Shown piece after piece: positions 985 through 63,100 of a stretch of 64,000 bases of DNA; position 1 is the stretch's first letter, and every line of letters begins with the position of its first letter. Source of the DNA: Candidatus Komeilibacteria bacterium (GTDB lineage Bacteria; Patescibacteriota; Patescibacteriia; UBA1558); NCBI GenBank assembly GCA_048538235.1, contig JBLYPX010000001.1, forward strand, positions 594,136-658,135. Reading direction: 5' to 3'. The notes under the pieces were generated by a model that saw only the letters and a list, made by a program, of their open reading frames with translations, did no database searches and was not told the DNA's origin. Position numbers and translations under genes: made by a program.

Positions 985-986
985 AA

Positions 987-5912: not shown

Positions 5913-5990
5913 TTATACTATAAAAAAAGCCACGTTAAAAAAAGCTTTAACATGGCCCTCAAATTTTACTTTTACGGTCTATATTATAAC
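5913..5990 (-). promoter_or_regulatory. conserved upstream cassette: putative -10 box (TATAAT on minus strand = plus 5983-5988) followed by a leader hairpin (arms 5929-5939 / 5946-5956, 11 bp with one G-U) and a U7 tract (plus A-run 5922-5928) ending 9 nt before the ATG at 5912
   Basis: Read directly from the sequence. About 87% identical to 23891-23975, which sits upstream of the paralogous gene at 17726-23890. Stem pairing is preserved there through a G-U wobble. Confidence 0.4.
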
Positions 5991-6022
5991 AGAAAAATAT
6001 CGTTTTGTGTATAAAACGATAT
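5991..6022 (-). terminator. Rho-independent terminator candidate for the three-gene array 23890-6049
   Basis: 10-bp perfect stem atatcgtttt / aaaacgatat (plus 5997-6006 and 6013-6022) with loop gtgtat. On the minus strand it is followed by TTTTCT. It lies 27 nt downstream of the TAG (6051-6049) of ORF 6049-11970. Confidence 0.5.
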
Positions 6023-6048
6023 TCTTTAAAATTATTTTAAATATAATG

Positions 6049-11970: not shown

Positions 11971-12060
11971 TATTATTTAAAGTGTATTAATCCTTGATTA
12001 TATACTTCTTTTACTTGCTTATCTGTAAGGGCGTAGTTGTAGATACGGATGTCGTCCAGT
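11575..12060. repeat. ~485-bp direct repeat spanning a gene junction (3' end of ORF 11973-17723 + 5' 395 nt of ORF 6049-11970)
   Basis: About 99% identical to 17328-17815 (only 3 mismatches noticed in the first 400 nt). Repeat spacing is 5753 bp. Confidence 0.85.
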
Positions 12061-17723: not shown

Positions 17724-17815
17724 TATTATTTAAAGTGTATTAATCCTTGATTATATACTTCTTTTACTTGCTTATCTGTAAGGGCGTAGTTGTAGATACG
17801 GATGTCGTCCATTAA
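17328..17815. repeat. second copy of the junction direct repeat (3' end of ORF 17726-23890 + 5' end of ORF 11973-17723)
   Basis: See 11575-12060. A third partial copy is at 23480-23770. Confidence 0.85.
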
Positions 17816-39100: not shown

Positions 39101-42100
39101 CCTTCTGAATCTGTAATACTACGTATATCTTTAGCTCCAAATCCAAGTCCTGGTAGATATACATAATTATCTCCCGCTACTGATGTAAAGTTGTATGAAA
39201 TATATCCAAGATCTATTGTATTATTCCCAGTTGTTAGATCTATTGGTGTTGAATATTTATCTCCAGCTTTAAGTACAATTGTATCTGCACTATCTGTTTC
39301 AATGTCTAAATCATACCAAATCAAATTATCTGATGCAGATTTATATCCTAAGGCTGTATTTAAATGTGTTTGCTTAATATATTCTGTAGAATTATCTATG
39401 TATGAAATACTTAAGTTTCCGATATTATCTGAAGTAATACTTAAACCATTAACTGTTGATGTAATTTCTGTTGCTGCGTTTAAGCTATTTCCTTCATTAT
39501 CTAGCACTTTATAATATGTCTTATTATCTACTGCCTGGTAAGCAACTATTACTCTATCATTATTAACTACCATGTCTACATTAGAAATAGCAGAAGCATC
39601 AATTGTTGCTGTGTTAGTAATATTCTGAGATTGATCAATTGTAATTGCTTTACCAGCAGTATCGCTATATACAATCATTGCTTCGCCATTTGTTAAACTT
39701 GTGCTAGTAATGTTACTTATTGCTACACTAGCAAATGTTGCTGTTGTGTGAGTATATGTATCTAAATCTATTAAAGATGTCTTACCATAATCTAATTCCC
39801 CATTATCTACATATGAAACCAAAACCTTGTTACCCATTTGAGTAACATTTATGTCTGAAATACTACTATTAATTAATTGTGTTTCAGATTTAATTATAAT
39901 ATTATTCTCAGAAACAATTGCATATTTACCAACTCCGTTATCATTATATGCAATGAATAAATAGCCATTTGTAAGCTCTGCAATATCTAAGCTTGAAGTA
40001 GCTGCACTATTAAAGACTGTTTCATCAGTAGCGATCTCACCATTGCTAGATATTATAACCATTGTTCCATAACTTGAATTACTATCGTCTGTATAGGCAA
40101 TAGCTACGCTGCCATTACTAATTGCAGTAGTTGCAATATTACTTGTTGTTCCTTGGTTAAATACACCCTTAGCAACCACACTGCCATCATTATATATTCT
40201 GTATTTACCTTTATTGCTATCTAAAGAATCTACATAAGCAACTAGAGATAAATTATTATCCATAATCTCAGTTGAAACTTCAGTTGTTGTTGATTCAATA
40301 ATTGTAGACTCTTGCATTTGCTCCCAATATACTTTAGCTGACTCTATTGGTAAATTACTCTTAATTTGTTTCTTAATAGCTTCTGTAAGTTTTGGTGCTA
40401 GAATGTCTCCTTCAACATATAGATCACCATCAATCTCTACACTACCGGTTACTAATAGATCATTCTCTGTTGAAACATTGTCAGCAATAGCTCCCATACC
40501 AACTCTAAGATAACCATTCTTAGCAATCAAAGATGTAAGGTCGTCTGTATTAGAAACTTCTAGATAACTAGTAGAATTTGAAGGTTTTAATGTAATAATA
40601 CTATCTGCTGCATCTGACTGAAGTGTTAAATTACCACTTGTAGACTTTAGAGTTAAATCATTAGTTGTTTGAATCTGGTTATTAGATAACTCCATTTCAT
40701 CTACCTTAACAGCGGTAGCAAAATATCCGCTAGCCCAACGATTAGTAGTAGAACCTAAGTCATACATATTATCTTGATTCAACTGTAAACCGCTCTTAAA
40801 TGTACCCTTTACCTCAATTAAATCATCTGTAGCATTACCTAATATTACTCCACCTTGTAATTCTGTATCTCCACCAGCTGTTAGTGTTCCAGCTACTAAT
40901 AGATTATCTGAAAGTGGATCATACCAAGAGACGTGAACAAAAGCTTCAATAGTACCCGTTGCTGAATTAAAGCTAGAAAGAGCTTTAGCAACAACTGGAC
41001 CAGCGCTGGTTGCTTTCATAGCATAACCATTTCTAGATGATGTTGTTAGATAATCTCCATTATTAATAGCTCCATTATCGTTTGTTACTTTAATAGTAAC
41101 TTTACCAGCAAGTGCTATAGCTCTACCAGCTACACTAGAATTTAATTTAATGGCTGAATTATCTACAACCACACCTACTGCAGATTCCTGGTATTGAGCA
41201 TTAGATTTAACTAAAGTATTCGCCGTATTTGACATTACTACTACATCACCAGCCTCAGGTAAATTTCCTTGATTATCTATTGTAACTGCAAACATTTCTG
41301 ACATGGCAGACATTTCTGTATTTAATGATCCACTCATATCTATACTGCCAGTTGAATCTATTGTTAATACTGTACTATTATTACTATTATTAATATTAAA
41401 CTTTGAAGCGCCGGCATTATCATCCAACTCAAGACTTATACCCCTTACCTGACCTGCAGCACCAGCGTCTGATTTAATTGTTAATCCATTTTCATCTGAA
41501 ACAATAGAGCCTATACCTACGTTTGTTGAACCGATTACCAACTCATCATCTACTTGAACATATGAATTATCTGAAGATAAAGTAAGAGCTGATTCTGTGC
41601 TAATATTACCAGTTGTATAATCAACCATACTTAACACACCACTTAACTCAGTGCTTTGCTCCTGTATAGCATTTAACATAGGCGAAATTAAAGCTGTATA
41701 TTTTACAGAATCTGGCAAACCACTTTGATCATATCCAACAAAAAGTGGGTTAACCGTCTCAACTTCTTCTGCTATCAAACCATAATATTTGACACCAGAA
41801 CCTATACCATTATTAAATGACTCTTTATATTCAAAATTTACTGGTCTTAAATCGTAGAGCCAAGATACATCCTCCATATCTACAATATTTTCTTTAAATC
41901 TAATAGAGGAACCGTTTTTACCAATATTACCTGCAGAATCTACATAAAGTGTTTGTGTTGGTGTAACACCAGTGGTGTATGCTAAAGAGCTTACTAATCT
42001 ATCCGAACTATCTATAACGACTGAACCTGAACCGCTAGCAGCTAAAACAACGTTACTGTTAGTACCTATATCACCACCGGTAATAGTCAACGTACTTTTA

Positions 42101-45100
42101 CTTTGAATCCCGGAAGCCGTACCATTAGCCATATATATATCATTAGCTATTGTCACATCACCAACACCACTAGTCTTTAATGTTCCAGCTACATCTAAAG
42201 TGGCTCCTGGCGAAGACGTATTAATACCAACCCTCTCACTAGTTGGCAATAATAAAAGATCTGTATCTGCAGTTTCTGTAGTTATCTCATTATCATCTAA
42301 TCTTATATCATTAACATCTAATCTATTAAAATCAGCGTAGCCTATGCCAGACACATCCCAACTTGCAGATGATAATATCAACCCATTTGTACCACTACCA
42401 ATTTGAATATCATCAACACCACCACCGGTACCAATATAAATCGTATCTACACCTGTGCTATTACCAATATTTATAGTATCTACCCCAGAACCACCAATAT
42501 TTATTGTATCGTTTCCAGAACTATTTATTGTTGCGCTTCCATTAACATGTAATTTTACACTAGGATTAGTTATGCCAATACCAAGATTTCCTCCTGCTTC
42601 TAGCGTCATCAAATGAGCAGCGTTAGTATCATAAAACCTAATAGCGTTCGAATCACCACTTCCAGTGCCATCATAACCCATACTCATACCATATCCAGAT
42701 GTGTTTTCCCAAAATGTTATACCATTTGTACCACCTGTTGCATTAGATCCTGACAAAATATTTATTATATCTTCGTCCTCGGTAGCTGTTGGAGTTATCG
42801 CACTGCCAAAAGTAGACTTGCCTGCAACATGCAATGTAGTATTAGGAGCTGACGTACCTATACCAACTTCATTAACATCAACATCAACAAAAAGGTCAGT
42901 GGTGTCAACAGCAAAATCAGCTCCTAATACATTCAAATTACTTGTCTGGTAATAAATCCTTCCTGCAGAAGCTGAAACTCCAATATAATTGCCTGTATCA
43001 AGATCAATGTCTCCACTACTAATAAGGACATCGTTAGCTCCATCAACTAATAAACTACTAACGCGAGAAGAGCCGTTAACATCCAACTTATATGCTGGAT
43101 TAGTTGTACCAATACCAACATTTCCAGTACTTTCAATAATCATTCTGTCCGTCAAACTACCAAATTCTTCTTGCACGGTTCTAAATATTAGACCCGTTGA
43201 CGTCTGATCTGTAGCACCATCTAAAAGTGCCCCAATTTGAGCAGTGCCACCATTTGCAGCTGTACCAAATGTTAAATCAGTAGACTCGCCACCAACATTA
43301 ACTGTACTATCATATATTTCTAGTTTAGATCTTGGGTCTGAAGTTCCAATACCGACACTATTCGTATCACTCTCCACAACCAATGTATTATCGTCTACGT
43401 TAAAGTCGTCGCCTGCTGTGTTGCCTAAATCAACATCAATGCCACCTGCAGAAGCATTTAAATAAATAGCATCTGCGGTTGTGTCAGCGGTAGTTAAATA
43501 TATTCTACCCGTTGCTGAGTTTAATCCAATTTGACCAGTAGCAGTTGTTACATCAAATGTTCCGGTTGTTGTACTATCAAAAGTTATAGCATTAGCAGCT
43601 GCATCCACATCTACAGCACCATCAATATCTAGAGAATCACCTTGTATCTCTCCTACTACATCCAATTTAGCAGTCGGATTGCTTGTTCCAACACCAACTT
43701 CATTAGCAGCTGTTACCACTAAAGCATCTCCATCCTGAACAGACCCAACATTAATAGATAAATAATCATCTGTTGCGTCTGTAACATAGAAATTCGCTGC
43801 GATACCCGTTCCTGTTCCATCTGATTCATATAGAAGCAGTCCATAATTTGCATCACTTGGTTGAACAGAAACATAGCTGTCACCATCTAATGTAATGACT
43901 CCGGAATTAGCACTACTTATATTTACAGTGCCTGCACTTGTTACGTTAAGAGCACCAGAAGCTATTGTAGACAATGTTAATGCATTTCCAGTCACAGACA
44001 CATTAGAAGCTATCGCACCATCAATAGAGAAGGACTTAGAATCTATAGTAATTGCATCATTTACATCTACATCTAAATCTCCACCTGTACCAGTCACATT
44101 AATATCTATTGCTGATGTTCCTGTATTACCCGTTGTTAAATCTATCTCTCCTGTGGCTGAGTTTAGAGAAACTTGACCAGCTGCTGTTGTTACATCAAAT
44201 GTACCAGTAGTTGTACTATCAAAGGTTATTGCTCCTGTTCCAGCATCTACGTCTACAACTCCATCTATATCTAGAGAATCACCTTGGATCTCTCCAGCTA
44301 CATCTAATAGAGCGCTAGGCACTGTGGTACCAATACCAACATACTGACCTGGTATTATATTCAAATCTCTTTGAGACTCAATTACCGCATTTCTATCATC
44401 TGCAGCCGCCATATAGATAGTCACATGACCCTGGTTTGCTCCACCAGCTACTCTAAATAAGTTATCTCCCGGCGTAGCACTACCAACAACTTGTAAAGAT
44501 CGTGCTGGAGCACTAGTACCAATACCCAATCTATTATTAACATCATCATAAGCGCTACTACCATCAGACCCAAAGAATATATGTCCTTTAGTAGCATGTG
44601 ATGTAGATGCTAATGTTAAGTCTCCACCAGAGGCTGTACTGCCTTGTATAAGTGGCGATGTAATTGAAGTAGTCACTGCCATTGTTCCTGTAAAATTAGC
44701 TGCTGAAGAAATTGTCTGTCCATTATATGTTCCCATATTAGCGGCTATACCAGTAGTATCTATTCCCCAATCACCAGACGAAAGAGCTAGGGTTCCAGCT
44801 GCACTAATAGATATATTACCATTTGTAGCATTTCCAGCTGTTAAGGCTATTGGACCATTGGTTGTATCCATATCTATACCACCAGCAGCACCAGTTGCAT
44901 TAATATCTATAGCTGCTGCTGTTGTATTAGCTGTTGTGAAGGCAATAGTACCTGTGGTGGCAGTAAAGTCTATATTAGAGGTTGTTGAATCTACATCTAC
45001 AGCTCCATCTATATCTAGAGAATCACCTTGTATTTCTCCAACTACATCTAATGGGGCGGCTGGAGCAGTCACACCAATACCAACCCTATTTGCAGATTGG

Positions 45101-48100
45101 TCAACATATAGTGTGTTAGAGTCTAAATTAATGTCTCCTGTACCATTAGCATTTATTGTAATATTACCGTTTGTATTTGTACTTGTTATAGCGTTACCAT
45201 CTAATCTTAAATTATCTATATTTAATTGCGTACCTGTGATAACACCCGGACCCGTAATACTCCAACTATCACCACTTATTGTATTACCTCTTACATATAT
45301 ATTGTCGCCACTTGATGCACCCAAATATGTATTTGCAGAATATAAATATGTATTACCACTACCACCCGTGACATAAAAATCATTTGCAGTAGCTATTCTT
45401 CCGTTCGTGTCGCTCCAAAAATACTCAGTATCACCAACATACACACCACTATCTGCACGAACTGTTCCTGGTGTATAGATATTACCTGTTAAATTCAGGC
45501 CGCCACCCATAGTTGTTGTTCCGGTTACTTCAAAGCTATCATCTACATATACCTTACCAGTACCACGACCTTCTAGGACAAGATTTGTATTAGTGGCTAC
45601 ATCACCAGCTGTAATATATAGAGGAGCTTTTGAACTAATTGTAGAAGATGTAGCGTTACTCATGTAAATATCGTTCGCAATAGTAACATCTCCTGTACCC
45701 TCCATACTAAACGGTACATAAGAAGTGGCTTGTGAAGGAGATACTGTAAATAAATCATTATCTGACGAATCTGTAATCTTTAATATATCTGAAGTTTGAG
45801 TTGTATGACCTTTTATTGTTAATTGTACTTCATCTGCATCTCCATCTATTAAAACGTTATCATTAACTGTTAACTTACCAGCGATAGCCATTGTCCCGGT
45901 AAAATCGGCTGCGGAAGAAATTGTTTGACCATTTATTAGGCCCGATGTTATTGTACCCGTTCCACTTGTTCCTACATATAGATTACCTGAGGTTTTAGTA
46001 GTTGTTGCTGTAAATAATATGGTTCCATCTGTATCATTATCTATTGTTTCACCATTTTGAAGATTAATATCTGTTGTTATGCCTGTATTACTTATTCCTA
46101 TGGCTGTACCTGATGTACCATCAAGTGTTAATGTGGTTGCACTAGCCGTTCCAGCTACATCTAATTTATACCCTGGATTGGTTATTCCAATACCCACATT
46201 ACCTCCTGCTTCTATAGTCATTCTATCTAAATTATTTGTAGCAATCCTAACGTCTGTATTTTCTCTATTCCAGAAAATAGCCTGCTCAGTTGCATTTACA
46301 CCAACTAACAATCCGTCTGTTGCAGCTGTGCCAGTACCATCTTGTGTTAAATGTATATACGATGTACTACCCGCTGTTGCCTGATGAACTTGCAATGGGC
46401 CAACAGGCGCTGTAATACCAATACCCAATCTATTATTAACATCATCATAAGCGCTATTACTATCTGATCCAAAGAATATATGTCCTTTAGTGGCGTGTGA
46501 AGTAGATTCTAAAGTTAAATCCCCTCCAGAAGCTGCACCACCTTGTACTAATGGTGTTACTACTGAAGTTGAAAATGTACCGGTTGTACCAGAAACAGCT
46601 CCGCCACTAGCCATAGATGCAAAGGAAGCTGCGCCGGCATTTGTAACTGACCATTGTGGGTCTGTAATCTGTACTCCGGCATTTGTGGTACCTATTGAAA
46701 CAGTTCCTGTTCCTGAGTTCATTATATTAATTCCGCCAGCACCATTAGCATTAATTGTTAAGGTTTCATTTGTATCATATGTATCTATTATTGCGCTTCC
46801 GTTATAGCCCAAATCTAATGATGAAGTATATGTTTTGCTTTCATATAACAACAAGTCCCAATCTCCACTATTTAAAGCATCTATACCAATGCCAGAAGAA
46901 TTAGCTGTTCCAATCTTATTAACACTAGCCCCTCTTGTATATATAGTACTACCATCTCCAGAGATAATAGTTGCATTATCTACCTCATAACCACCAGTTG
47001 AATCAATCACACCTGCCACGTCTAATGGATCGTCTGCTGTAATTGAACCAATTCCTACATTACCAGTGATAGCACCTGCTCCAGTTACTGTTAAATCACT
47101 CTGAATGCCAACTTCTCCGCCACCACCTGGCTGCATGACTATATCTTTTGGAGTGCCAGCAGATGTTGCTAAATAGAATGTTCCATAACTTTCAATAGTA
47201 TTACTTGTGTTATCTGTTAAATTAATACCGTTAGCAACAGATAAAGTACCAGTACCTTCAACTGAGAATGGTACATAAGATGTACTTTGTGTTGGAGAGA
47301 CCGTAAACAGGTCAGCTCCAGAACTATCTTCTACTACGAATATATCATTTGTTTGGGTGCTATAGCCTTGAATGATGGTTTGTATCTGATCAGAGGTTCC
47401 ATTTACCATTAATTTAGATGTTGGGTCTGACGTACCAATACCAACCTCATCAGCCGCTGTAACTACTAAGGCATCTCCATCTGTTCCGCTATTTAGATTA
47501 ATAGATAAATAATCATCTGTTGCATCCTTAACATATAAATTAGCATAAGTTCCTGTTCCTGTACCATCAGACTCTCTAATCAACAAACCTAACGTACTAT
47601 TTTCTGACCTTAAATCAATATACGCATTTGTATCTGTACCTGCTACAGTAGATAATATTAAAGCTCCTGAACTGCTTACATACAAATCTGCTATTTCAGC
47701 CGTTTCAGCTGTTCCTCTTAATCTCAAACCGCTTGTATTACTACCTGTGTCTATATCCAATTTAGAAGCTGGATTTGTTATACCTATACCTAAGCTTCCT
47801 CCATTAATATATGAGCTTGCGTTTGAGTGTAATTGAATAGTCTGAGCAGTGCCACTATATACATTTACATAACCATCGTCTTCTGCGTCCTTACCAACAA
47901 CTAATACATTACCATTATCATCCGCTGTTAATCCTAATATATTTTGTGCTCCAGTTGTACTTGTCTTTATAGACAATGGCCAGGCAGGATTAGTCAAACC
48001 AATACCAACTCTATCATTAGTCGCATCAACACTAAAGGTGCTGCCATCCAAACTTAAACCATTTACACCACCAGATAATACAAAGTTTGTATCATTACTA

Positions 48101-51100
48101 AATGTCCAAGCACCAGTATTAACAGATACTGTATCTGCTGTGCTATTACCAATAGCTACATTACCGTTCAATGTTGTTGTTCCGCCTACTGTTAAAGTTG
48201 AATCAAATGAAGCTGCACCCGCACCTGAAATTGACCAATTAGCGTCTGTAATAGCTACATTAGCTGCTGTGGTACCAATAGACACGGCGTCTGCACCACC
48301 ACCAGTTGCTACGTTAATAGTATCCACTGCTGTACCAGTACCAATATTTATTGTTCTTGCTATATTAGTAGAGCCCACATTCAAAGTAGTGGCTGCATTG
48401 GCTAAATTGAAGGCAGCTGAGGCAACATTTAAATCTCCACCAGATATTGTTAAATCTGTGTCTATTGTTAAAGAGTCTGGGGTTCTCAAAACATTAGCAC
48501 TATCCCTGTAGAGTCTAATATCTAAAGGTGATCCTCCGCCAACACCAAATTCTAGACCACTAGAAGATGTTTTTACTATAGGGTTAGCATCACTAGCTGC
48601 ATTATAGACATTTACAGAGCCAGGGCCAACATTTACTTCTGCCCAACGTAATGCTGCTGAACCTAAATCATAAGTATTATCTGTTGATGGTAAGAAATCT
48701 CCTGAAATACTCACACCACCCCCAAGAGTAGTTGTTCCAGTTACTTCAAAATTGTCATCTACATAAACCTTACCAGTACCACGACCTTCTAATACTAAAT
48801 TTGTATTACTACCAACTGCACCTGCTGTAATATATAGAGGAGCCTCTGATGAAATTGTACTTGAAGTTGCATTTGAGAAGAATAAATCATTAGCAATTGT
48901 TACATCACCCGTACCCTCCATACTAAATGGAACATATGAGGTTGCTTGTGAAGCAGACAAACTGAATACAGTATCAATAGCAGAACCAATTGCTGGACGT
49001 ACTCCGAAATTAAAACTATCTGTACTATGACTATACACCAGCTCTGCCATCGCTGTTTGATCAGGATCATTAAAGTAAAAACCGCCTTGCTTATCTGCAG
49101 GAGACATAAAGTCTATCATGGTGTGATTATTATTCTCTAAAGCTAAAGCGCTATATGTTGAGCTATAAATATTTGCTGTTGAATCTCCTTTATATACATG
49201 CAAAATAGCGTTAGGATCATTAGTACCAATACCAACACTATTAGTATCACTTTCAACAACCAAAACATTTCCATCTACATTAAAATCATCACCAGCGCCA
49301 TTACCCAAGTCAATATCTATACCACCAGCAGAAGCATTCAAATAAATTGCTGCTGCTGTAGTATTACCTGTAGTCAAATTAATAAGGCCAGTTGGAGCAT
49401 CTAATGAAATAGGGCCTGCACCTGTAGTATCTACTAAGAAACCTCCTGTACCTGTATTAACATCCAGTGTAGTAGCTCCTGTAACATTACCCAGGGTAAT
49501 TGTTCTGGCTGCTGCTCCTGTACCAATATTAATAGCTTGATCTACTACATCATTACCAATAGATATTGCTGCTCCTGATGAATTAAGTTCTAATACTCCA
49601 GCTGAATCTAATAGCAAAGTTCCGGCTGCACTTGCTGAGATATTACCATTTGTAGCATTTCCAGCTGTTAAGGCTATTGGACCATTGGTTGTATCCATAT
49701 CTATACCTCCAGCAGCTCCAGTTGCATTAATATCTATGGCTGCTGCTGTAGTATTACCTGTTGTTAAATCTATCTCTCCTGTGGCTGAGTTTAGAGAAAT
49801 TTGACCAGCTGCTGTTGTTACATCAAATGTACCTGTTGTAGTACTGTCAAAAGTTATTGCTCCTGTTCCAGCATCTACATCTACAGCTCCATCAATATCT
49901 AGAGAATCGCCTTGTATTTCTCCAATTACATCAAACTTAGCGGTTGGAGCAGTAGTACCAATACCAACCATATTAGCTGAAGCATCAACATATAATGTGT
50001 TTGTATCTACCTGTAAATCACCAGCTTGAGTGCCAGCTGTATAAAAATTGAAGAAATAACTTGAGGTGTCCCAAACTGTCAAATAATCACCAACATCTTG
50101 TATTGTCTGTTCTGACTCGCCAAAACTTAATGCATTACCGTCGATATCTACATTTCCACCAACATTTAAGTTGCTAGATGTGGCGGTTGTTGTAGCAGTT
50201 AACAATATAGTACCATTAGTATCATTACTAATTGTTTCACCATTTTGAAGATTAATATCTGTACCAAATCCTGTGCCAGATATATTTATTGCTGTTCCTG
50301 AATTACCGTCTACAACTAATGTATCTATAGTAGCCGTACCGTCAACAAACAAATCTTGCCATTCATATGTAGCACTACCAATATCATATGAATCATCTGC
50401 TGTTGGTAATAAATCACCTGTAATAGTTCCAAAGTCTGTAGCGCCAGTAATAACTAAGTCACTCTGAATACCAACCTTTCCACCGCCACCTGGTTGTAAT
50501 ACTATATCCTTTGGAGTTCCAGCAGATGTAGCTAAATAGAATGTTCCATAACTTTCAATAGTATTACTTGTACCATCTGTTAAATTAATGCCATTAGCAA
50601 CAGATAAAGTACCAGTTCCTTCTACTGAGAACGGTACATATGATGTACTTTGTGTTTCAGATACAGTAAATAGATCTGCTCCAGCACTATCTTCCACTAC
50701 AAATATATTATTTGTTTGTGTTCCATTACCTTGAACGGTTAATTGCACTTCATCTGCCAAGCCATCAACAAACAATCTAGAAGATGGAGCGTTTGTTCCA
50801 ATACCCACTCTATTAGTGCCACCGTCTACAAATAATGCATTAGCATCTCCATTACTTTCTACTCTAAAGTCTATATCATAACTATCTTCATTAAATGTAA
50901 TATTTCTACCATTACCACCCGTGTTTAATACCCAAGCGGCATCTAAATCCATAGTGTCTTGAAAATCTACAAAATCTAAGGTGTCGTCTGCTACATCGCC
51001 ACCAACAATTGTACTATCTAATATTTCTGTAGAATCAATAGATCCTGCTGGCAATACAACTTCTGCTGTACCAGTACCATCTGTTGCTAGGGTGATAGCA

Positions 51101-54100
51101 TTTGTCACAGAAGTGCCAATGCCAATAGTGGTGTTACTATTAATTGCAATAGCACCAACATCTGCAGATCCCAAAGTTAAGGTTCCGCTACCATTTGGAT
51201 CAATAGTTATACTTCCATTAGTGTCTGTACTAGATAATGTATTACCATCAAGTCTTAAATTATCTCCATTTATTTGAGTGCCACTCATAACACCAGCACC
51301 AGTAATTGACCAATTAGCATCTGTTATAGCCACATTGGCTGCTGTGGTACCAATAGACACGGCGTCTGCACCACCACCAGTTGCTATGTTAATGGTATCT
51401 ATTGCTGTGCCGGTACCAACATTAATTGTTCTGGCTGAATTAGTTGTACCAATATTTATTCCACCAGTGCCATTCGGATTTATGGTTATTGCACCATTTG
51501 TATTTGTACTAGATAATGTATTACCATCAAGTCTTAAATTATCTCCATTTATTTGAGTACCCGTGATAACGCCAGCACCAGTAATATCATAACTTGTGCC
51601 ATCAATAGCATTAGCGCCCATAGTCAAAGTCCCACTCATAGTTGTAGCAGCTAATGTATCAATATTAGCTGTACCGTCAATCCAAAGATCTTGCCATTCA
51701 TAGGTATCTGAACCAATATCGTATGAATCATCTACTGTTGGTAATAAATCACCTGTGATTGTACCAAAGTCTGTAGCGCCAGTAATAACTAAATCACTCT
51801 GTATTCCAACTTCACCACCACCACCTGGTTGTAAGACTATATCCTTTGGAGTACCAGCAGAAGTTGCTAAATAGAATGTTCCATAACTTTCAATGGTGTT
51901 ACTATCATCATCTGTTAAGTTAATACCATTTGCAACAGATAAAGTACCAGTACCTTCAACTGAGAATGGTACATATGATGTGCTTTGTGTTTCAGATACT
52001 GTAAATAGATCTGCTCCAGAACTATCTTCTACTACAAATATATCATTTGTTTGAGTTGAATGACCTTGAACTGTTAACTGTACTTCATCTGTTAAACCAT
52101 TAACAAATAGTTTAGAGGATGGGGCGTTTGTACCAATACCTACTCTATCTGAAGCTGTAACGTTAAATGCGTTTCCATCGGTGCCGCTATTTAAATTTAT
52201 AGATAAATAATCATCTGACGCATCTGTTACGTATAGATTAGCGTAAGTTGACGTACCTGCGCCACTGGATTGCCTAATCAACACACCCGTTGTATCATCC
52301 TCTGATCTTAAATCTATATATGCTTGTGAATCTGTTCCAGCGACAGTAGATAAAACTAGAGCACCGGAACTATTTACAAACAAATCTGCAATTTCAGCTG
52401 TTTCTGCAGTCCCTCTTAACCTTAGACCATTTGCATTACTACCCGTATCTATATCTAATTTAGAAGCTGGATTTGTTATACCTATACCAATATTACCGCC
52501 AGAGTCTTCCGCTAAAATAATATCTCCATCGTATTGCAGTTGGATGTCTGCTCCACCACTTCCTGAATAACCAATGTTCAAATCTGTATTATCTGTATTA
52601 TCTTGGAAATAAATCTCAAACTTATCATAAGCATTCTTTAATTCTAACCCTTGACTTGATCCACCAGAACCCTCAATAGTAAATAAATCTGAAGGGTTTG
52701 TTGTGCCTACGCCCACATATCCAGATGAATTTATAGCAATACCGTTAGCAGCGCTCCAAGTTCCATAATTTAATCTAACTGTATCTGAGCTATCTTCATA
52801 ACCCATATTGAACATTAAATTTGAACCTTGGTAGCCAATCAAACCAACATTATTTGTAGCCCCAGCTGTTAACTTAACTTGAGTATCGCTAGCAGTAGAA
52901 ACGTGCAATATCTTATCTGGAGTAGTTGTTCCAATACCAACCTCTCCTGTTGTTAAAACACTTACTTTTTCAGAACCAGAACTGGACCCAACAGTTGCGC
53001 CTGTATAAATGCCAAACCTTCCACTTACTGTCTTTAAGCCAACTGTTTGACCGGCATTATCTGCAAAAAATAAATTAGCACTCGAAGTAGCTGCGTCTGT
53101 TCTCTGATTAATAACAATACCATTTGCACCACTAGATGTTACATCTAAACTAGTATCTGGACTTGTTGTGCCAATACCAATATTACCTCCGGTATTAAAC
53201 CAAGAATTTCCGCCAGAAGTACCATCTACCGTTATATAGTTTGTGCCATTATTATTTGCAAATAATCTAATAGCACCTGTACCGCCATTACTACCAACTA
53301 ATAAATCTCCAGAGCTCATCTTCAAATCACTGGTTCCTATATATATACCACTACTAAATGTACCGCCATCATTAATTCTCAAATATTCATCTCCGAGCTC
53401 GATAGCAACATCGCCCCTGTCTCTATCATAAATATTGTCTACATATATTGAATTAACATCTACAATGTTGTTTCCTTCCATATCTAAATTACCGCTATAT
53501 GTGGTTGTTCCGGTTACCTCAAAATTATCATCAATAATAACTGAACCACTATTAGCAGCAGATAATGTTAAATCTAAATTACCAGATGGTGATTCAGTCT
53601 GTATATATAATGGAGCTTGGGATTTAATATATGATGCAGTTGGATTAGTAAACACTAAATCATAAGCTATTGAAACATCTCCAGCTGCATTAAAGCTAGT
53701 TGGTACATTAAAATTAGCTTGAGCAGTATCTACATCGAATAAATTACTGCCGACACTATCTTCTACAACAAATATATCACTTGTTTGTGTGCTATGACCC
53801 TGTACTGTTAATTGGACTTCGTCTGTATCTCCATCCACTAATACACCATCTGAAAATTCAAACCTATCATTTGTATTGCTCCATATAATACTTTCTCCCG
53901 TTGTAGAGGAATCTTCGTAGAAGTAGATCTGAGAATCTGCGTCAGCTCCATCAAAATTCAAATAAAGTTGCCCTTCTGATCGTAGTGTTTCACCTCTAAC
54001 CCAAGAAGCTATATCTGCAGTAGAACCTCCAGTAATAGCACCATCTGCATTAAGAGTTCCTTGTACATCTAATAAATAATCTGGAGTTGTGTCTGGACCT

Positions 54101-57100
54101 ATACCAACGTTTCCAGAAGATGTATCTATATATACTCTATCTACACTTGAACTGTTTCTAATAACGAAGTCTCCAGTTGCCAAAGATGGTGTAAAATACA
54201 ATGAACCATAATTAGCAGAGCTTGCATATGTTACAGACTGTATCCAACTGCCAAGCCCAGTACCGGTTCTTTCTAATTGAATTGCTGGTCCTGCATCTGT
54301 AATATGTAATGACTGTTGAGGTGCAGTAGCTCCAATACCAACTTGACCAGTTGAGTCAATATTCAAATGATTGTTTGCAAAATTGCCATAACTGAACGTC
54401 GCTGCATCGATAGTATCGTCATACCCTATCGTAGCCATATTTACTCCACCCTGTCTAAATCTAATAGTTTGATTATATCCATCTGCGTTTGACTCAACAT
54501 CTACAACAGAGTTTACACCTGTTGCATAAATATCTAGCTTAACATTATCTTCTGGCTGAGTAGTACCAATACCAATATTACCAACTGTATCTATCAATAA
54601 TCTAGTTGCGCCCGCTGTATTATCATAAATATGGAATTCATCTGCCGTGCCAATACTGCCATCTCCATCCACTTGGATCTGCCAATCTCTATCTCCAAAT
54701 AATTGAATATATGTATCCAAATTTGCCGCTGCTTCTAACTTTAATGCCGCCGACGAAGTGTCTGCTATACCAGAAACTACCAAATCTTGATTTGGAGCTG
54801 TTGTACCAATACCTACATAACCAGAACCATCTATCACAAAACGTGGGTTAGTATTTAAAGTATCCGCTGTTTCAGATATAGCAAATATATTTCTAGACTC
54901 ATCCAACCCTATACTGAATTGTTCTGTTGAACCAGTAGAATGAAACATAATCCTTGCGTCTGCGTTAGCACCTGTACCATTCAACAACATGCTCGCAACA
55001 CTGTCATTAGCGATTTCTAAATTCTGGCCTGGAACTGTCGTCCCTATACCTACATTCCCAGAACCCATAACGGTAACAAAGTTTGTAGCGCCTTCACCGA
55101 TCTGTAATATTTCATCAGCATCTCCAACAGCTCCAGCTGTAGCTATTCTAATTGCTTCTGTAGAAGTACCACCTGTTGGTAATGATGATTGAATCAATAT
55201 ATTACCACCAGATGCTTGAGCGCCAACAAGGGATGTAAGTATTTGTAATTGTTCCCCAGAAAAACCAATTGTTGAATTAACATAATTAGAACCTGCCCCT
55301 GATGTTCCAGCTGTATCTGAAATATTTAGTGAAGCTGGTCCTAAGTATAGATCTTGCCATCTCTTAGCTGCTGAACCTAAGTCATATGTATTGTCTGTGG
55401 CTGGTAATAAATCTCCTGTAAATGTTGTAGTACCAGTCATAGCTACATCTCCAGTCACATTTAAATCACCTGTAATATTTACTGCCTTATTCTGAATTCC
55501 ACCTGTACCGTCTGCCTCAGAATACACCTTTAATATTGGTTCACTATCTATAGATAATGAATAACTTTCTTCTGTGCCAGCTGCTGGAGTTGAACTTACA
55601 GGCATATTTACGAATGTGACAGCTCCACTATCTTCAGCAAATTCATATGTTCCGCCAACTATTGTGCCACCAAATTCAATTTGATCAGAAGTATTAACTT
55701 TGACTATATTAACCGTACCAGTTCCAGCGCTATCTACACTCTTTATCCAATTGTCGTTTGTTATTTGTAAGTAATCTTCTGTTCCTTCAACTACTCTTAA
55801 TCCTTCCCAAGCACCAGCTATTAATGAGAGTTGATCAGCAGCTGCTCTACCAATACCAGTGTCATCATCACTCTCAAAACTGAATACTGGATTTATACTT
55901 GTTGGTGCTTCATTCCAAACTCTTGGATAGTTGGTACCATAGAATCCAAAACCAGTTGCACTTATAAATGCTTCAGGTTGCGTACTAAAAGCATATGATA
56001 AGACATTAGGCGAAGTTTCATATATACCGGTATCTCCATCACCAAAAGCTAAAGTAGGCGTATCTGCATCATTTTGTGATGGTAACTTAAGACTTGCAGT
56101 CGCTGTGTTTAATATAACATTACTACTAGTATCTATAGTAACAGCAGCTGATGTACTACCATTTACTTCAAAGTGGATATTATCTGCACTGCTCAAATGT
56201 GTACCATATTGACTTGCGCTTCTATAAGTATAACCAACCTGACCTAAGAAAGTTTCATCACTTTCAGCGAATCTAATTCTTACACCTTCATTAGCAGTTG
56301 TTACAGCTGAATCTTGAGATCTTATTTGTAATACCGTATCTGCATTACCTGAATCAAATATATCTAATACTTCAGATGGGTTTGTTAAACCAATACCAAC
56401 CTCACCAGCAGAATCAATAGCCAATCTATCTTTTACATCATTAGTAGTAAACCCTAATACATCGGTATTGTGATTATATCTAACTTGACCAACATTATCA
56501 TCGTTGGTATCACCAAAATCTATTGCTGAATAAAGTGTATTACCAGTAACAATCTTAACTGCTGCATTGGCAGTCTCATCTCTAACCTCTAATATGCTAG
56601 CAGGACTAGTAGTTCCAATTCCAACATTAGCATCAGCATCTATCGTTAGACCATCTGCCCACGTTCCATCTTTTCTTACACCTAATTTAATTCCTCCGTC
56701 TCTATTTGCAACACTCTGAAAATCTGACTCTGCATATGCCCTTACATATGCTCCATAAACTGCATTAGTAGCACCAAGATAAAGAGTTGCGGTTTCATCT
56801 ATAGAGCTAGCCCCTCCATAAGTATTTGTAATACCACTATACACATCTCCACCATTATTACCTTGTTGAAATTGAGCAATAGCTCCAGAACTTCCCGCCG
56901 CTACATTCAATCCATAACTACCCGGACTTGTTGTGCCGACACCAACATTTCCATTGTCTAAAATGGTCATTGCGTCTGTTGCAGTATTGCCAACCTTGAA
57001 TTCCATTCTATCACCACCGCCATCCCATCTTATACCGGCCTCAGCTGTTGAACCTTCAAAGAAATATAGATTGGTATTATATCCACTTGGCGCTTCCATA

Positions 57101-60100
57101 CTAACCACCTGATTAGCATTTGCAGTAGTTTTAAATTTAGCTATATATGTTTCTGTTGATTCAACATGTAATGGGTCATCAGGAGCTGTTGCTCCAATAC
57201 CGACAAAGCCATTTCCAGTTACTGTTAAAATTTTTGTATCATCCTTATCTGCCAATTGGAATACTCTTTTATTATTTGAAGAATCTGAAGCTCTAACCAA
57301 CAAACCTTCGCCCGTAGCACTTGAGTTTAATATTCTCTGTGCCCAAGTTGAAGAGCTGTCTTCAATAGATAATTTATATACTGGACTTGTTGTTCCAACA
57401 CCAACATTGCCGCTAGCGGTAATTCTCATTCTCTCCTGATTAGCAGACCCAGCATTAAACGTTATATTAGTATTATCTCCTGCAGTAGAGTATGGGACAG
57501 CATTTATAGATGCCTGAACCCTAGTAGCATCTGCTGAATAGAACTCGATACCACCCCAATTATTAGCCGTATCCCAATCTGAACCTGTTGATGTTGTCGA
57601 TATTCTTAAAACGGTTGGATTTAATGTTCCCGTTCCTGTCGCAGTTGATATTTCCAACAATTCAGCGGGTGCAGTTGTCCCAATACCAACATTGCCGCCA
57701 TCTGTCTCCAAAGCAATATTGCCTATACTATTCATTGTCAAAACATCGGTAGCTGATGTATATGCTAAAGTTCCTTCATCTGATGTAGATGCTCCGACAT
57801 GTATTGTTTCGCCACCCAAATATATATTTGCCCAACGTAAACTATCTGAACCTAAATTATATGTATCATTAACGCTTGGTAAGAAATCTCCTGTTAAAGT
57901 GTAATCTCCTGTCACATTAAGATCACCCGTTACATTCACTGCTGGATTTTGTATACCACCCGTACCATCTGCTTCTGCATATACTTTTAATATATTGTCG
58001 CCATCAATCTTAAATGTTGCAGACATTTCTGTACCAGCTGTTGGAGTTGAGCTTACTGGCATATCAAAGAAGGTAATTGCACCAGCATCCTCGTCTGCTA
58101 CAAATGTTCCAATATTTAAAGCTGCTCCCAATTCTACCTGATCTGAACTATTCACCTTAAACATGTTTACCGTGCCAGTACCAGCGCTATCTACGCTCTT
58201 TATCCAATTATCATTTGTTATTTGTAAATAATCTTCTGTTCCTTCAACTACTCTTAAACCTTCCCAAGCTCCTGCTATTAATGAAAGATTGTTAGCACCA
58301 TCACCGCCGATACCAGTAGTATCGTCACCTCTATGAGGTATAATCACCGGATTAGTATACGATGAAGTTTCTTTAACCATCATTGGACCGTCACTATTTG
58401 TAGCTCTAAATTGAGTAGTTAATGCCTGCCAAACTGCAGTCCCGCCAACAGACAACACAATATTATCATCGCCCGCCTCATAAAAACCAGTATCTCCATC
58501 TCCGAATGATAATGTTGGAGTGGCTGCATCATTTTCTAATGGTAATTGCAACTTACTAGTTGGATTAGTTAAACCTATGCCTACATTTCCACCGGTCATT
58601 AAAATATTACCGCCCGCAGTTGTAAGATAAAAATCCTGACCACTTACAGATTGGTATATATTAGCTGTAGTTGTTCCAGAGAACTTAATTTCATATCCAG
58701 TATTAGTCTCAACATCTAAACCAACACCGCCTACTCCCAGCCCATTAATTTCCAACTTAGCTTCAGGAGCTGTAACTCCAATACCAATTCTATTATTTAA
58801 AGCATCAATAGATAAAGTATTAGCATCTATATTTAAAGCATTAACCGCATTATTTAAAGTCCAAGTTGAACTGGCAGCTTGTGTTAAGTTCAAAGCTGAA
58901 GCTGAGGTTAAATTTAAATTACCAGCTGTTGTTGACCAAGTTGAAGTAGCGTTACCGGTTAAAGTAAGAGAATCGCCTGTACCAGCAACTATCTGAGAAG
59001 CACCTGTAATATCTACATCAGCTAGCGCATCACCAATATTAATATCGTCAGCTGCTGTTCCGCCAGTACCAATATTTATTGTATCTATAGCTGTGCCAGT
59101 ACCAATGTTTACATTATTTGCTTGGTTTGATGTGGCTAAATTTAAAGTGGCTGGATTTGAATTAAGAGTAGCAACGTTAAAGGTTGTTAAACCTGTACCA
59201 TTAATACTATATGTAGCAACTGTATTTGGTGTTACAACTGACGTTGTGTTTGCCCCACCAAGATTCAAGGCTCCAGTTGGGTTTAATGTTAAATTTGTAC
59301 TTGAATTAATATTTCCTCCATTAACTGCTAAATCGCTAGTCAAATTTAAACCACCGCCTGCTGTAAAATCTGTTGCTGCATCACCAATGTTTAATATTAA
59401 ATTGTTCTGCATGTCTATATCGCTCTCATATGCCGTTGTTCCGACAATGGTAGTGTCCCCAGCAACCGTTAGATTGCCATCCAAAAATGCATCTCCGTCA
59501 ACCTCTAATACCCCTTCAATGTATAAATCATCATCTGAATTTAAGCCATGGCCCATGCCAGTCACAGCATCTCCAATAACGTTGTACACTTGTCCAGCTG
59601 CACCACCAATTGCAATTGTATCTGTATCTCCAAGTATTAACTGACCTGTTCCAGCTGCTCCAGTTATGTCTAATGTTAAATCTCCGGTATTATCTACTTG
59701 GAAATTAGCATAAAGAACATCATTGGTATGAGTTAGACGTAACTGAGGGCTCGAAGCGTCTAAACTTTCTAGTCTTGCATCTGGACTATCGGTGTTTATA
59801 CCAACATTACCTGCATTAAAATATGAATCTCCATAACTTCTAATTCTATTAACTGTGGTGCCCGCACTATTTAACCAGTCTGTCACAATACCATTGTTTA
59901 AATAATTCCATGTCATCATTCTTGAATTTAAATAACCCTCAACGCTTAACCCGTTTTCTGATGCGCCAATATTATCTGTCTCAATTTCTAATTTGTGCGT
60001 AGGATTGGTTGTTCCTATACCCACCTCGCCATCATGATTTAAAGTCATAGCTGTAATATCTGGCGTGCTTGAAGAAGAACTCTGTTGTAAAATGAATTCT

Positions 60101-63100
60101 AATCTTGTTGGTATTTGAGAGCCAATAGTATCGTCTGCAACAGCTCTAATTTGAGCACCCGTTTTATCTACACCGGCAACCTTGCCACCGAAATAATAAC
60201 TACCTAATAAATCTCCAGGCAAAGTCTGACTAGATGTTAATCTAGACATAACTCCATTTCCTTCAACCTGTAATGCAAAAGCGGGTGCTGTAGTACCAAT
60301 ACCTACATAACCTGCATTAAAGTAAGAATTTCCATCACCTAATATAGCTACCGTATCTGTACCATTACCTCTTAATCTTAATCTTGCATCTCCTGTAGTA
60401 GGTTCGTCTACTAATAGAATATTATTTGTTCCACCATTTTCTCTAACCTCTATAGCTGTTCCAGAACCAACACCTGGAGATTTTATTTCTAACTTTCCTT
60501 CAGGATCTGTCACACCAATACCAACGTTTGCACTCTGAGTAATTCTAAATATTTCCCCACCGTAAACGCTATTATCTATGGCAAAGTCTGTGCCTGTTCT
60601 TCTAAGATCCCAATAAGCGTCTAATGTGTCACCAGCTCCAGACTCTGCTAATCTTAGTCTAGTGTCTGTTGATGCCCCTGCTGTTTCTGTATCTCTAATT
60701 GTTAATATTGGATCACTAGCCACAATCTCCATCTTTGTATCTGGTGTAGCAGTTCCTATACCAACATTACCAGAACCCATAACAGTAACAAAGTTTGTAG
60801 CGCCTTCACCGATCTGTAATATTTCATCAGCATCTCCAACAGCTCCAGCAGTAGCTATTCTAATTGCTTCTGTAGAAATACCTCCTGTTGGTAATGATGA
60901 TTGAATCAATATATTACCACCAGATGCTTGAGCGCCAACAAGGGATGTAAGTATTTGTAATTGTTCCCCAGAAAAACCAATTGTTGAATTAACATAATTA
61001 GAACCTGCCCCTGATGTTCCAGCTGTATCTGAAATATTTAGTGAAGCTGGTCCTAAGTATAGATCTTGCCATCTCTTAGCTGCTGAACCTAAGTCATATG
61101 TATTGTCTGTGGCTGGTGTAATATTTCCAGCTATTGTTTGACCTCCGTCAAAGTAAGCCATGCCATCAACTTCTAATGTTCCTTCAATATATGCATCTTC
61201 TCCGTTTAATGTTTGGCTAGGAGTTCCATTACCAACCTTTAAATTACCAGTTAATACATTAACAAGGTCTGTGGCATTACCTGTTGTTAAAGATATATTA
61301 TTCGCCCCATCAGAAGTAACATTAACTCCAGCACCAGAAAGTGTAGAAGAAGCATCTGAATCAATATTTACAGCCCCAGTAGCATCTACACCATATGTAC
61401 CACCTACTGTAGCTAAGTAATTAGCTGTTGTTGTTAAATTAAAGGTAGTACCATCTATGGTTATTGTATCGTTAGCATTAATATCTATATTTCCTGATGA
61501 AGTGAAATCTAGTTCTCCATCTGCTAGTGTTCCACCATCTGTGGTAAGAGAAATCTTAGTACCACCTACATCTACGGTTGTATCTGAGTCTACATTTACT
61601 GTTCCTGCTGAATCTACTGCATAAGTACCTGTATTTGTTAAAGTGTAGTTTACTCCATCTATTGTTATATTTCCTACAACGTTTACATCATAGTCATCTG
61701 CTACGTTTAGAGTAAGGTCTCCATTGGTAGCTCCTCCAGTAGTAAATGTCATAGAACCGTCTGTGGTTGCTATGTTTTGAGAACCAGATGTTAATAGGTC
61801 ATATGTTCCTGTTACGTCTATATCTAAGTTAGCACCTGCGTTTAGGTCAAAGAGGCCGGCGGAGGTTGCAATTAAGTTACCTGAAGTTAAAGTAGATAAT
61901 GTTAAATTACCAGAAGTAGCACTGACATTAGAATTTCCTGTACCATCTATACTAAATGTTCCAGAAGATAGCATGTCATAATTTCCAGTTACATCTATAT
62001 CTAAGTTAGCACCTGCATTAAGATCGAAAAGGCCGGCAGAAGTAGCTATCATACTACCAGTTGTAATGGTAGATAGTGTTAAATTATTATTAGTTACAGA
62101 TAAATTAGAAGCTGCTGCGCCATCAATTGAATAACCAGCTGTTGTATCTATGACTAATGTTGCTGAATCAATATCTATTGCCGCACCAGCATTGCTTATA
62201 TCTATATCTGTTACTCCATCACCAGTTAGGGCTAATATACCACCATCAGAAGTAACATTAACTCCAGCACCAGAAAGTGTTGAAGAAGCATCTGAATCAA
62301 TATTTACAGCCCCAGTAGCATCTACACCATAAGTACCACCTACTGTAGCTAAGTAATTAGCAGTAGTTGTTAAATTAAAGGTAGTACCGTCTATGGTTAT
62401 TGTATCGTTAGCATTAATATCTATATTACCAGATGAAGTGAAGTCTAATTCTCCATCTGCTAGTGTTCCACCATCTGTTGTTAAAGATATCTTTGTACCA
62501 CCTACATCTACGGTTGTATCTGAGTCTACATTTACTGTTCCTGTTGAATCTACTGCATAAGTACCTGTATTGGTTAAAGTATAATTTACTCCATCGATTG
62601 TTATATTACCTACAACGTTGACATCATAGTCATCTGCTACGTTTAGAGTAAGGTCTCCATTGGTAGCTCCGCCAGTAGTAAATGTCACAGAACCGTCTGT
62701 TGTTGCTATGTTTTGAGAACCAGATGTTAATAGGTCATATGTTCCTGTTACATCTATATCTAAGTTAGCGCCTGCGTTTAAGTCAAAGAGGCCGGCGGAG
62801 GTAAGTATCATTGAACCGCTAGTTGTTGTTTCTAGAGTTAAATTTTGAGAGTCTGTAGAAATATTTGCTGTACCAGATAAATACAATGGGAAATTAAAGT
62901 CAAAACGATCATTAGTATTATCCCAGCCAAATGTTGCGTTTGTTCCAGGAGTTCCTCTTTCAAACACAATGTTCATAGCCTCACCGTCATTAGTAGTGTT
63001 ATCTGTATTAATAACAAAGCTTTCAGCAGTTGTTCCTAAAATACCAGAACCAGGTGCGATCAAAGTACTGGTATAAACATTTCTCCAACGATGAGTTGGT

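Follow-up and report, generated by a model that had tools for sequence, protein, structure and literature searches.

Predatory Bdellovibrio carry mosaic adhesive trimer (MAT) fibers, which are intertwined trimeric β-helices with capping loops that either end in a Peptidase_S74 (S74) domain or lack one (Caulton et al., 2024, PMC10769870). The known members of this domain family template the trimeric β-helix upstream of them and then cleave themselves off, as is generally accepted and as described in the same paper and in the abstract of PMC3742443. Here we describe a gene with features of both MAT fibers and phage tail fibers in a 64,000-nt stretch (the window) of contig JBLYPX010000001.1, from a Candidatus Komeilibacteria bacterium that belongs to the candidate phyla radiation (CPR). 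This giant gene encodes a protein of at least 9,280 residues. In our view, to which we give a probability of about three in four, the gene is real, lies on the chromosome of a Komeilibacteria-like CPR bacterium and encodes a very long, probably trimeric surface fiber, whose stalk (~7,000 residues) would have grown by in-frame recombination of its modules.

The giant protein resembles the MAT fibers of Bdellovibrio bacteriovorus (Bd3182, of the S74 type, and Bd2133) in several respects. Its V modules are homologous to theirs, capping-loop motif included; an S74 chaperone domain stands at the end of a β-helical stalk; and it is a cellular, not a phage, protein with chimeric domains from a bacterium that lives on other cells, here presumably as a CPR episymbiont. 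The two differ in organism (a CPR bacterium, not Bdellovibrio) and in size: MAT proteins have ~1,000 residues, with a full-length Bd3182 model of ~550 Å, whereas the giant protein reaches at least 9,280 residues with 39 capping-loop modules, and 1,860 more of its residues follow the S74 domain. The N-terminus may also differ, as judged from an ortholog that starts with a helix-turn-helix (HTH)-like segment, one transmembrane helix and a collagen-like run; the N-terminus of the giant protein itself lies outside the window.

Phage tail fibers and tailspikes, such as the K1F endosialidase and T5 pb1 (PF13884, PF12219), share with the giant protein its matches to Peptidase_S74, End_tail_spike and tail-fiber PHROGs, as well as the Y motif and the logic of a β-helical stalk. 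Unlike these, the giant gene has a chromosomal, cellular context without phage genes nearby, is ten times longer and has a non-terminal S74 domain. The distal tail-fiber genes of T-even phages, studied by Tetart and Krisch, are reportedly mosaics that arise by recombination at short conserved motifs, and their host range is said to change by duplication of a small adhesin domain. The giant gene would share with them motif-bounded cassettes that are swapped or duplicated in frame. Unlike the T-even case, the exchange would take place within one bacterial gene, and what it involves is stalk modules under purifying selection rather than the tips that bind receptors.

The repeat-rich giant genes known from uncultivated bacteria (Omnitrophota and others) are likewise giant open reading frames (ORFs) that fragment at repeats, with growth by domain duplication proposed and surface attachment presumed (West-Roberts et al., 2023, 10.1101/2023.11.21.568195). 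Those proteins exceed 30,000 residues and are of dockerin and thrombospondin types, whereas the gene described here is shorter and combines S74 with a MAT-type β-helix. An internal S74 domain with a long part downstream also recalls the layout of MYRF, a eukaryotic membrane transcription factor whose S74/ICA domain is, according to the abstract of PMC3742443, internal and followed by a long C-terminal part; we found no other homology to MYRF, and its function is unrelated.

A mosaic stalk built from MAT-type modules

Comparison of the giant gene with itself by BLAST returned 42 repeat pairs, the best at 889 bits, and codon-shuffled controls gave 0 pairs in all ten versions. An earlier description based on the DNA letters (the sequence-only reading) had taken the locus for one giant fiber gene that is a mosaic of intragenic duplications, and these results bear it out while extending the mosaic beyond what it had reported. 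Each pair that it listed was recovered in its place: pair B, pair A, block C and the smaller pairs between 43 and 51 kb. Pair B, given there as ~360 bp at 99% identity, is real and its copies are 5.7 kb apart, although that identity was slightly generous: it is 98.1% over 366 bp (spacing 5,712 bp), or 98.3% (356/362) over the original, slightly shorter extent in the correct register. The 560-bp A units are 95.2% identical with a period of 936 bp, and the three copies of block C are 80–87% identical. Beyond A, B and C there are some thirty pairs (68–90% identity) between 43.3 and 58.3 kb, and pairs of 96–394 bp (72–90%) are numerous between 43.3 and 51.6 kb. All repeat spacings are multiples of 3, and every copy is in frame within one ORF.

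At the protein level (fragment-against-protein searches, E<1e-5), 73.7% of the residues match a paralogous segment elsewhere in the giant protein, with the repeat-rich part at residues ~260–7200, which run from ~62.9 kb down to ~42.1 kb. The copies are dispersed except for A, a two-copy tandem, and Tandem Repeats Finder reported no arrays in the giant gene. With one two-copy tandem and otherwise heterogeneous, dispersed modules, the protein is unlike Bap, Ebh and LapA, in which many similar units form head-to-tail arrays.

Several kinds of module make up the stalk. V modules (NVGIGTTxPxxKL) occur 39 times between residues 970 and 7148, often 73–80 residues apart; the Y motif (YDLGSxxxRW) occurs eight times, seven of them in the stalk and one in the C-terminal region; and there are six Q modules in the stalk. 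When a stretch of two V modules was compared by phmmer with sequences of crystal structures, it matched 8OJN (Bd3182, E 8e-6) and 8OND (Bd2133, E 8.3e-5). The motif common to the giant V modules and to Bd3182 and Bd2133 is VGxGTTAPxxxLHV, and Bd3182 has GRVGVGTTAPTSALHV at the aligned position. The capping-loop motif of the MAT β-helix, as defined in PMC10769870 (V-G-G/N-pi-x-x-P-x-x-x-L), is present in the stalk in 39 copies. Because the V motif matches these two structures and their capping loops, we assign the stalk modules, by sequence, to the MAT/tail-fiber type of β-helix unit, and the fiber that they form is probably trimeric. Consistent with this assignment, a PHROGs search found two "tail fiber protein" families (E 8e-32 and 1e-14). 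An NCBIfam scan gave no matches. A search of the Protein Data Bank with residues 7151–7350 returned TAL effectors (E 4e-17), a spurious hit in which weak matches to a repeat protein are summed and no single stretch passes the threshold.

A search with residues 781–2900 returned 474 homologs. Among the best 120 of these 474, lengths are 1,246–3,622 residues, many proteins carry PF13884, several are named "tail fiber domain-containing protein" and none exceeds 63% local identity. Where a source is named for these 120, it is in most cases a CPR phylum or Margulisiibacteriota; Verrucomicrobia, Chryseobacterium and a Nanoarchaeota archaeon contribute one protein each. We thus regard the giant gene, by homology, as an unusually long new member of the MAT/S74 tail-fiber-like family in CPR bacteria.

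Copies of different ages under purifying selection

Codon-level comparison showed that the copies cover a broad spectrum of synonymous divergence (dS). It is 0.04 in the core of pair B, 0.20–0.22 for A, 0.47 for pair C1 of block C and 0.3–0.9 for the other C and E pairs, and in many further pairs it runs from 1.0 to above 2, which is saturation. The ratio of nonsynonymous to synonymous divergence (dN/dS) is 0.04–0.47 across all copy pairs, and 22 of the 27 mismatches in pair A, which are evenly spread, are at third codon positions. The copies are under purifying selection that preserves the modules, with no sign of diversifying selection.

Pair B is composite. All seven of its mismatches lie within 55040–55171, 132 nt that adjoin an identical tract of 234 nt (55172–55405), an arrangement with P ~8e-4 under random placement. 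Because the mismatches are confined in this way, B looks like an older copy, about as old as A, that was partly overwritten very recently by a conversion tract. The flanks outside the B tract are 23–31% related, the generic level for V modules.

The gene therefore holds two young events, B and A, in at least 27.8 kb, while block C and the pairs between 43 and 51 kb are old copies whose similarity is held by selection at the protein level. The sequence-only reading had called the duplications recent, which is right for B, with its nearly unchanged core and identical tract, and for A (dS 0.2), and an overstatement for block C and the 43–51 kb pairs (dS 0.4 to above 2). It had also expected epitope variation; as the differences are mainly synonymous, this found no support. 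We consider it unlikely that the mosaic reflects a burst of recent, ongoing segmental duplications that give length and epitope (antigenic) variation. Such a burst could account for the identity of B (98%, with its 234-nt tract) and of A (95%), and for A copies that are much closer within a genome than to those of another genome, but most pairs are old, with dS from 0.4 to above 2, and neither the low dN/dS found everywhere nor the count of two young events is what it would leave. Such a mosaic is what ordinary evolution leaves in a modular fibrous protein: it was made by long-term copying and reshuffling of a few blocks and not by a recent burst.

Breakpoints at module-boundary motifs

The duplicated segments begin and end on conserved motifs. 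The edges of B are a Y motif and a V motif, C1 extends from a V motif to slightly beyond a Y motif, and A starts at SAGLFDLNAGANLDIDVTG, a motif that is present three times. Copies of such motifs share short exact runs at the DNA level, with a median of 8 nt, a 90th percentile of 12 nt and a maximum of 24 nt. Two readings fit these breakpoints: recombination or template switching at short homologies, or survival only of those events that keep the module phase.

We propose that in-frame recombination between the short conserved DNA segments that encode module-boundary motifs, usually with exact runs of 8–24 nt, lengthens and rearranges the stalk. The route may be unequal exchange, template switching or gene conversion. 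If the module phase is kept, the fold would be preserved and the event would survive, and the graded ages of the copies could be explained by this survival. The outcome would be copies of all ages, the youngest with a 234-nt identical tract and the oldest at synonymous saturation, all of them under purifying selection, and as a consequence stalk length and module order would vary between lineages while epitopes are not diversified.

Comparison with other Komeilibacteria genomes

Two Candidatus Komeilibacteria proteins come closest to the C-terminal 2,000 residues: P0001 (48% identity) and P0002 (43%), at a query cover of 86–91%. The contigs of the relatives keep the gene order of the window (giant gene, small membrane protein, LamG genes) and also carry tRNA synthetases, RecO, TGT and SmpB. 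Because of this synteny and these housekeeping genes, the locus is chromosomal and cellular. A phage or prophage origin is ruled out by the gene context in the window and in the relatives.

In assembly GCA_048538275.1, a protein of 2,835 residues (P0016) exits the end of contig JBLYPW010000003 and P0002 (3,438 residues) exits the start of JBLYPW010000002. The two are most likely pieces of one gene, because P0016 matches the N-terminal and P0002 the C-terminal part of the giant gene. The N-terminus of P0016 has an HTH-like segment, one hydrophobic helix (~residues 156–180), a collagen-like stretch of 11 Gly-X-Y triplets and 2–3 copies of a β-helix domain. Together with the S74 domain of the giant protein, the collagen-like stretch hints indirectly at a homotrimer displayed on the surface. 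Since the edge of the window aligns near residue ~1022 of P0016, ~1,000 residues of the giant protein probably lie beyond it. The giant ORF has 9,171 codons from its first ATG at 63672, and it is free of stops up to base 64000, so the gene extends past the window, which gives at least 9,280 codons; its true start is probably outside, with the ATG at 63672 internal.

The C-terminal ~1,850 residues keep their order relative to P0002, whereas the stalk is scrambled: the modules of P0002, in order, best match positions 5973, 4909, 3941–4130, 6293, 5739, 2337 and 7138 of the giant protein. Each genome has two A units, at positions that are not equivalent, with dS of 0.22–0.23 within each genome vs. 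1.0–1.5 between genomes, and in the single-copy part the synonymous divergence of the two genomes has reached saturation (proportion of synonymous differences, pS, ~0.8). Because A copies are far closer within than between genomes and the module order is scrambled, the data support recombination inside the gene after the lineages split. The earlier suggestion of continuing intragenic recombination thus holds for the period after divergence from the closest relative sequenced so far. That of length variation holds between relatives, whose genes are not alike in module content or in the length recovered: there are 39 V motifs in the giant gene, 9 in the 6,273 recovered ortholog residues and 2–38 across the family.

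Two observations concern single modules. The Q module at 45403–45864 has a pS of 0.52 to residues 265–400 of P0002, below the ~0.8 of the single-copy C-terminal region, and includes a 77-residue stretch that is 92% identical; constraint on codon usage or exchange of modules between lineages are possible causes. The stalk of P0002 (residues 1–230; 1–700 in L001) holds a tandem array of ~41-residue units (VVGADITDTEAVFGNEAADNFLVKGATTIDGALTATGAIQ) that is absent from the giant gene, and the contig begins inside this array.

An internal S74 domain

Residues of the giant protein match Peptidase_S74 (PF13884) at 27.3 bits, against a gathering cut-off of 22 (E 4.6e-6, profile positions 1–55 of 58). 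By eye, the region of the SDxxxK catalytic motif reads S-S-I-R-F-K, in which Ser and Lys are correctly spaced and Asp is replaced by Ser. The domain is located at the C-terminal end of the stalk, a placement that would fit a chaperone role for the β-helix upstream. In S74 fibers the domain is C-terminal; here ~1,860 residues follow it. These contain two repeats of ~180 residues (7781–7959 and 8281–8459), two "AMKAT" domains and an acidic tail. At the S74 site of the giant gene, P0002 and contig L003 have an "ADYAEW/YF" domain instead.

Assembly of the gene and remaining alternatives

Giant-gene fragmentation at repeats has been documented for other giants (10.1101/2023.11.21.568195), and the relatives of the gene described here provide further cases. 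Five retrieved contigs from four Komeilibacteria assemblies carry the giant gene or a homologous fragment, and all five end inside the repeat-rich part: L001/L004, whose first bases are in a tandem repeat, L007, L002, L003, and L009, which at 3,740 bp lies wholly within such a gene. The assembly hazard seen in the sequence-only reading is thus genuine in the relatives, and it is narrower in this window, where only one exact repeat within the giant gene, the B tract, is longer than 68 nt. At 234 nt this tract exceeds usual k-mer and read lengths, and the concrete risk is that the 5.7 kb separating the B copies could have been dropped or added with the frame kept.

It is distinctly unlikely, in our estimate, that copies or their order are an artefact of mis-joined strain variants or paralogous fiber genes, or of repeat collapse or expansion. 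The broken contigs, the precedent in other giants and the B tract all make such an error conceivable. On the other hand, all other exact repeats of the gene are at most 68 nt long, the pattern of synonymous substitutions between copies is that expected of real paralogs, no stop interrupts the frame through at least 27.8 kb, the two ends of the gene are colinear with the N- and C-terminal parts of the ortholog, and modules of the same kinds are duplicated in the independent ortholog assembly.

CPR genomes often carry diversity-generating retroelements (DGRs) directed at surface proteins. Programmed variation of the fiber by a DGR or by cassette recombination is nevertheless very improbable, for although the units are cassette-like and bounded by conserved motifs, the 64-kb window has no reverse transcriptase or silent cassette locus (the other ORFs encode LamG/DUF2341 proteins), selection on the copies is purifying, and the mismatch spectra have no adenine bias, which speaks against a DGR.

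Our interpretation of a real, very long fiber gene with a stalk grown by module recombination has several points against it. The S74 domain is internal, not terminal, and a Pfam scan of the recovered ortholog parts returned nothing, S74 included. Anchoring at the N-terminus is read from an ortholog of 45–75% identity, as the giant N-terminus is outside the window. Copy order and number come from this single assembly, in which a mis-join at the 234-nt tract would keep the frame and pass unnoticed. For the A units, whose positions differ between the two genomes, independent duplication and concerted evolution are both possible. An AlphaFold2 monomer prediction of the Q module, with its six in-gene paralogs, was uninformative (pLDDT 41.8, pTM 0.21). 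A scan of GTDB genomes found only two Komeilibacteria loci and no strain-level relatives. Likewise, a scan of JGI metagenomes with the N-terminal 399 residues gave two short, distant matches and no strain-level relatives.

Possible function

CPR bacteria are thought to live on host cells, and the molecules that make contact are mostly unknown. For the giant fiber, attachment of the episymbiotic CPR cell to its host seems the most plausible role, which would place it at the cell surface. More tentatively, the gene could encode a single trimeric tether of ~0.5 µm with which the cell reaches and holds its host; duplication and deletion of modules in phase would tune the reach, and the S74 domain might be a MYRF-like self-cleaving switch that frees the stalk from the conserved 1,860-residue C-terminal "tip". 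A length of ~0.5 µm is comparable to or above the size usually quoted for ultrasmall CPR cells. It is a rough extrapolation for 7,250 stalk residues from the ~550 Å model of the ~780-residue mature Bd3182 (PMC10769870).

That fibers grow by module duplication and motif-mediated shuffling is already well known, and what this gene adds is of descriptive and practical use, in annotation, the curation of assemblies and the choice of constructs, and not conceptual. The MAT/tail-fiber-type gene of this Komeilibacteria-like genome measures at least 28 kb, and next to it are another eight genes for surface proteins, of which seven are complete and one is cut by the left edge of the window. As the public metagenome-assembled genomes of relatives all break inside the gene, its real length and layout systematically escape notice, and entries of 1,200–3,600 residues may represent only parts of proteins. 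Within the gene, copies of graded age provide a natural record of how a trimeric β-helical fiber may lengthen without loss of its fold.

Features and neighboring genes

Coordinates of the features are collected in Table 1.

Table 1. Positions of the giant gene, its modules and its downstream neighbor in the window
Feature	Position (nt)	Strand	Remarks
Giant ORF	36157..64000	minus	Open frame to window edge; alignment to ortholog P0016
Mosaic stalk, aa ~260-7200	42073..62895	minus	V, Y, Q, A and E/R modules, order non-periodic
A unit copy 1 (aa 291-477)	62243..62802	minus	First of the tandem; self-comparison
A unit copy 2 (aa 603-789)	61307..61866	minus	95.2% identical to copy 1; dS ~0.2; dN/dS 0.04; left edge on SAGLFDLNAGANLDIDVTG
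B cassette copy 1 (aa 852-973)	60752..61117	minus	Y motif to V motif
B cassette copy 2 (aa 2756-2877)	55040..55405	minus	98.1% identity with copy 1
Y motif, match to the end of Pfam End_tail_spike (endosialidase)	57799..57897	minus	Pfam, short match at YNLGSxxxRW
V-module pair (aa 3008-3139)	54256..54651	minus	Aligns to Bdellovibrio MAT fibers Bd3182 (8OJN) and Bd2133 (8OND)
C block copy 1 (V3844, Q module, Y3984)	51648..52488	minus	Self-comparison
C block copy 2	50313..50813	minus	87% nt identity to copy 1; dS ~0.47; edges on V motif and Y motif
C block copy 3	47092..47790	minus	80-86% nt identity to the other two; dS 0.5-0.8
Older E-module copies (GEIQGDSLDIDG type)	43423..45125 (43423-43698, 44065-44340, 44989-45125)	minus	Pair with 49693-50009
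Peptidase_S74 intramolecular chaperone domain (aa 7255-7310; SSIRFKENI)	41743..41910	minus	Pfam
C-terminal region, mostly single-copy (aa 7326-9171)	36157..41694	minus	Colinear with Komeilibacteria orthologs, 28-73% identity
Small membrane protein, 157 aa	35662..36135	minus	No Pfam family; immediately downstream of giant gene; syntenic marker of the locus

Nine ORFs are complete within the window, all on the minus strand and the giant ORF among them. The other eight encode membrane-anchored LamG proteins of 1,176–2,054 residues, several with DUF2341, and the small membrane protein. The latter is in the same position in two Komeilibacteria relatives (53–63% identity) and may be a partner of the fiber; an exact look-up of its sequence gave no record. 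A further minus-strand gene starts near 990 and exits the left edge of the window; it has long poly-glycine stretches and its start resembles, by eye, those of the DUF2341 neighbors. The whole 64 kb is coding on one strand, and its GC skew is strongly negative throughout (-0.06 to -0.34). Opposite the giant gene, plus-strand ORFs of 157–183 residues (44858–45376, 48038–48511 and 59093–59644) are most likely chance frames in low-GC coding DNA, as nothing points to genes.

The tandem LamG/DUF2341 paralogs at 6049–11970, 11973–17723 and 17726–23890 have homogenized junctions that span the final ~88 nt of one gene and the initial ~1.1 kb of the next. The repeat pairs at these junctions are 10862–12058 with 16612–17811, 17243–17672 with 23398–23827, and 11512–11919 with 23420–23827; the pattern resembles what gene conversion, or unequal exchange, between adjacent genes would leave. 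The longest exact repeat of the window is found here, 348 nt at 11711–12058 and 17464–17811, together with another of 219 nt, and these junction repeats are a larger assembly hazard than any repeat within the giant gene.

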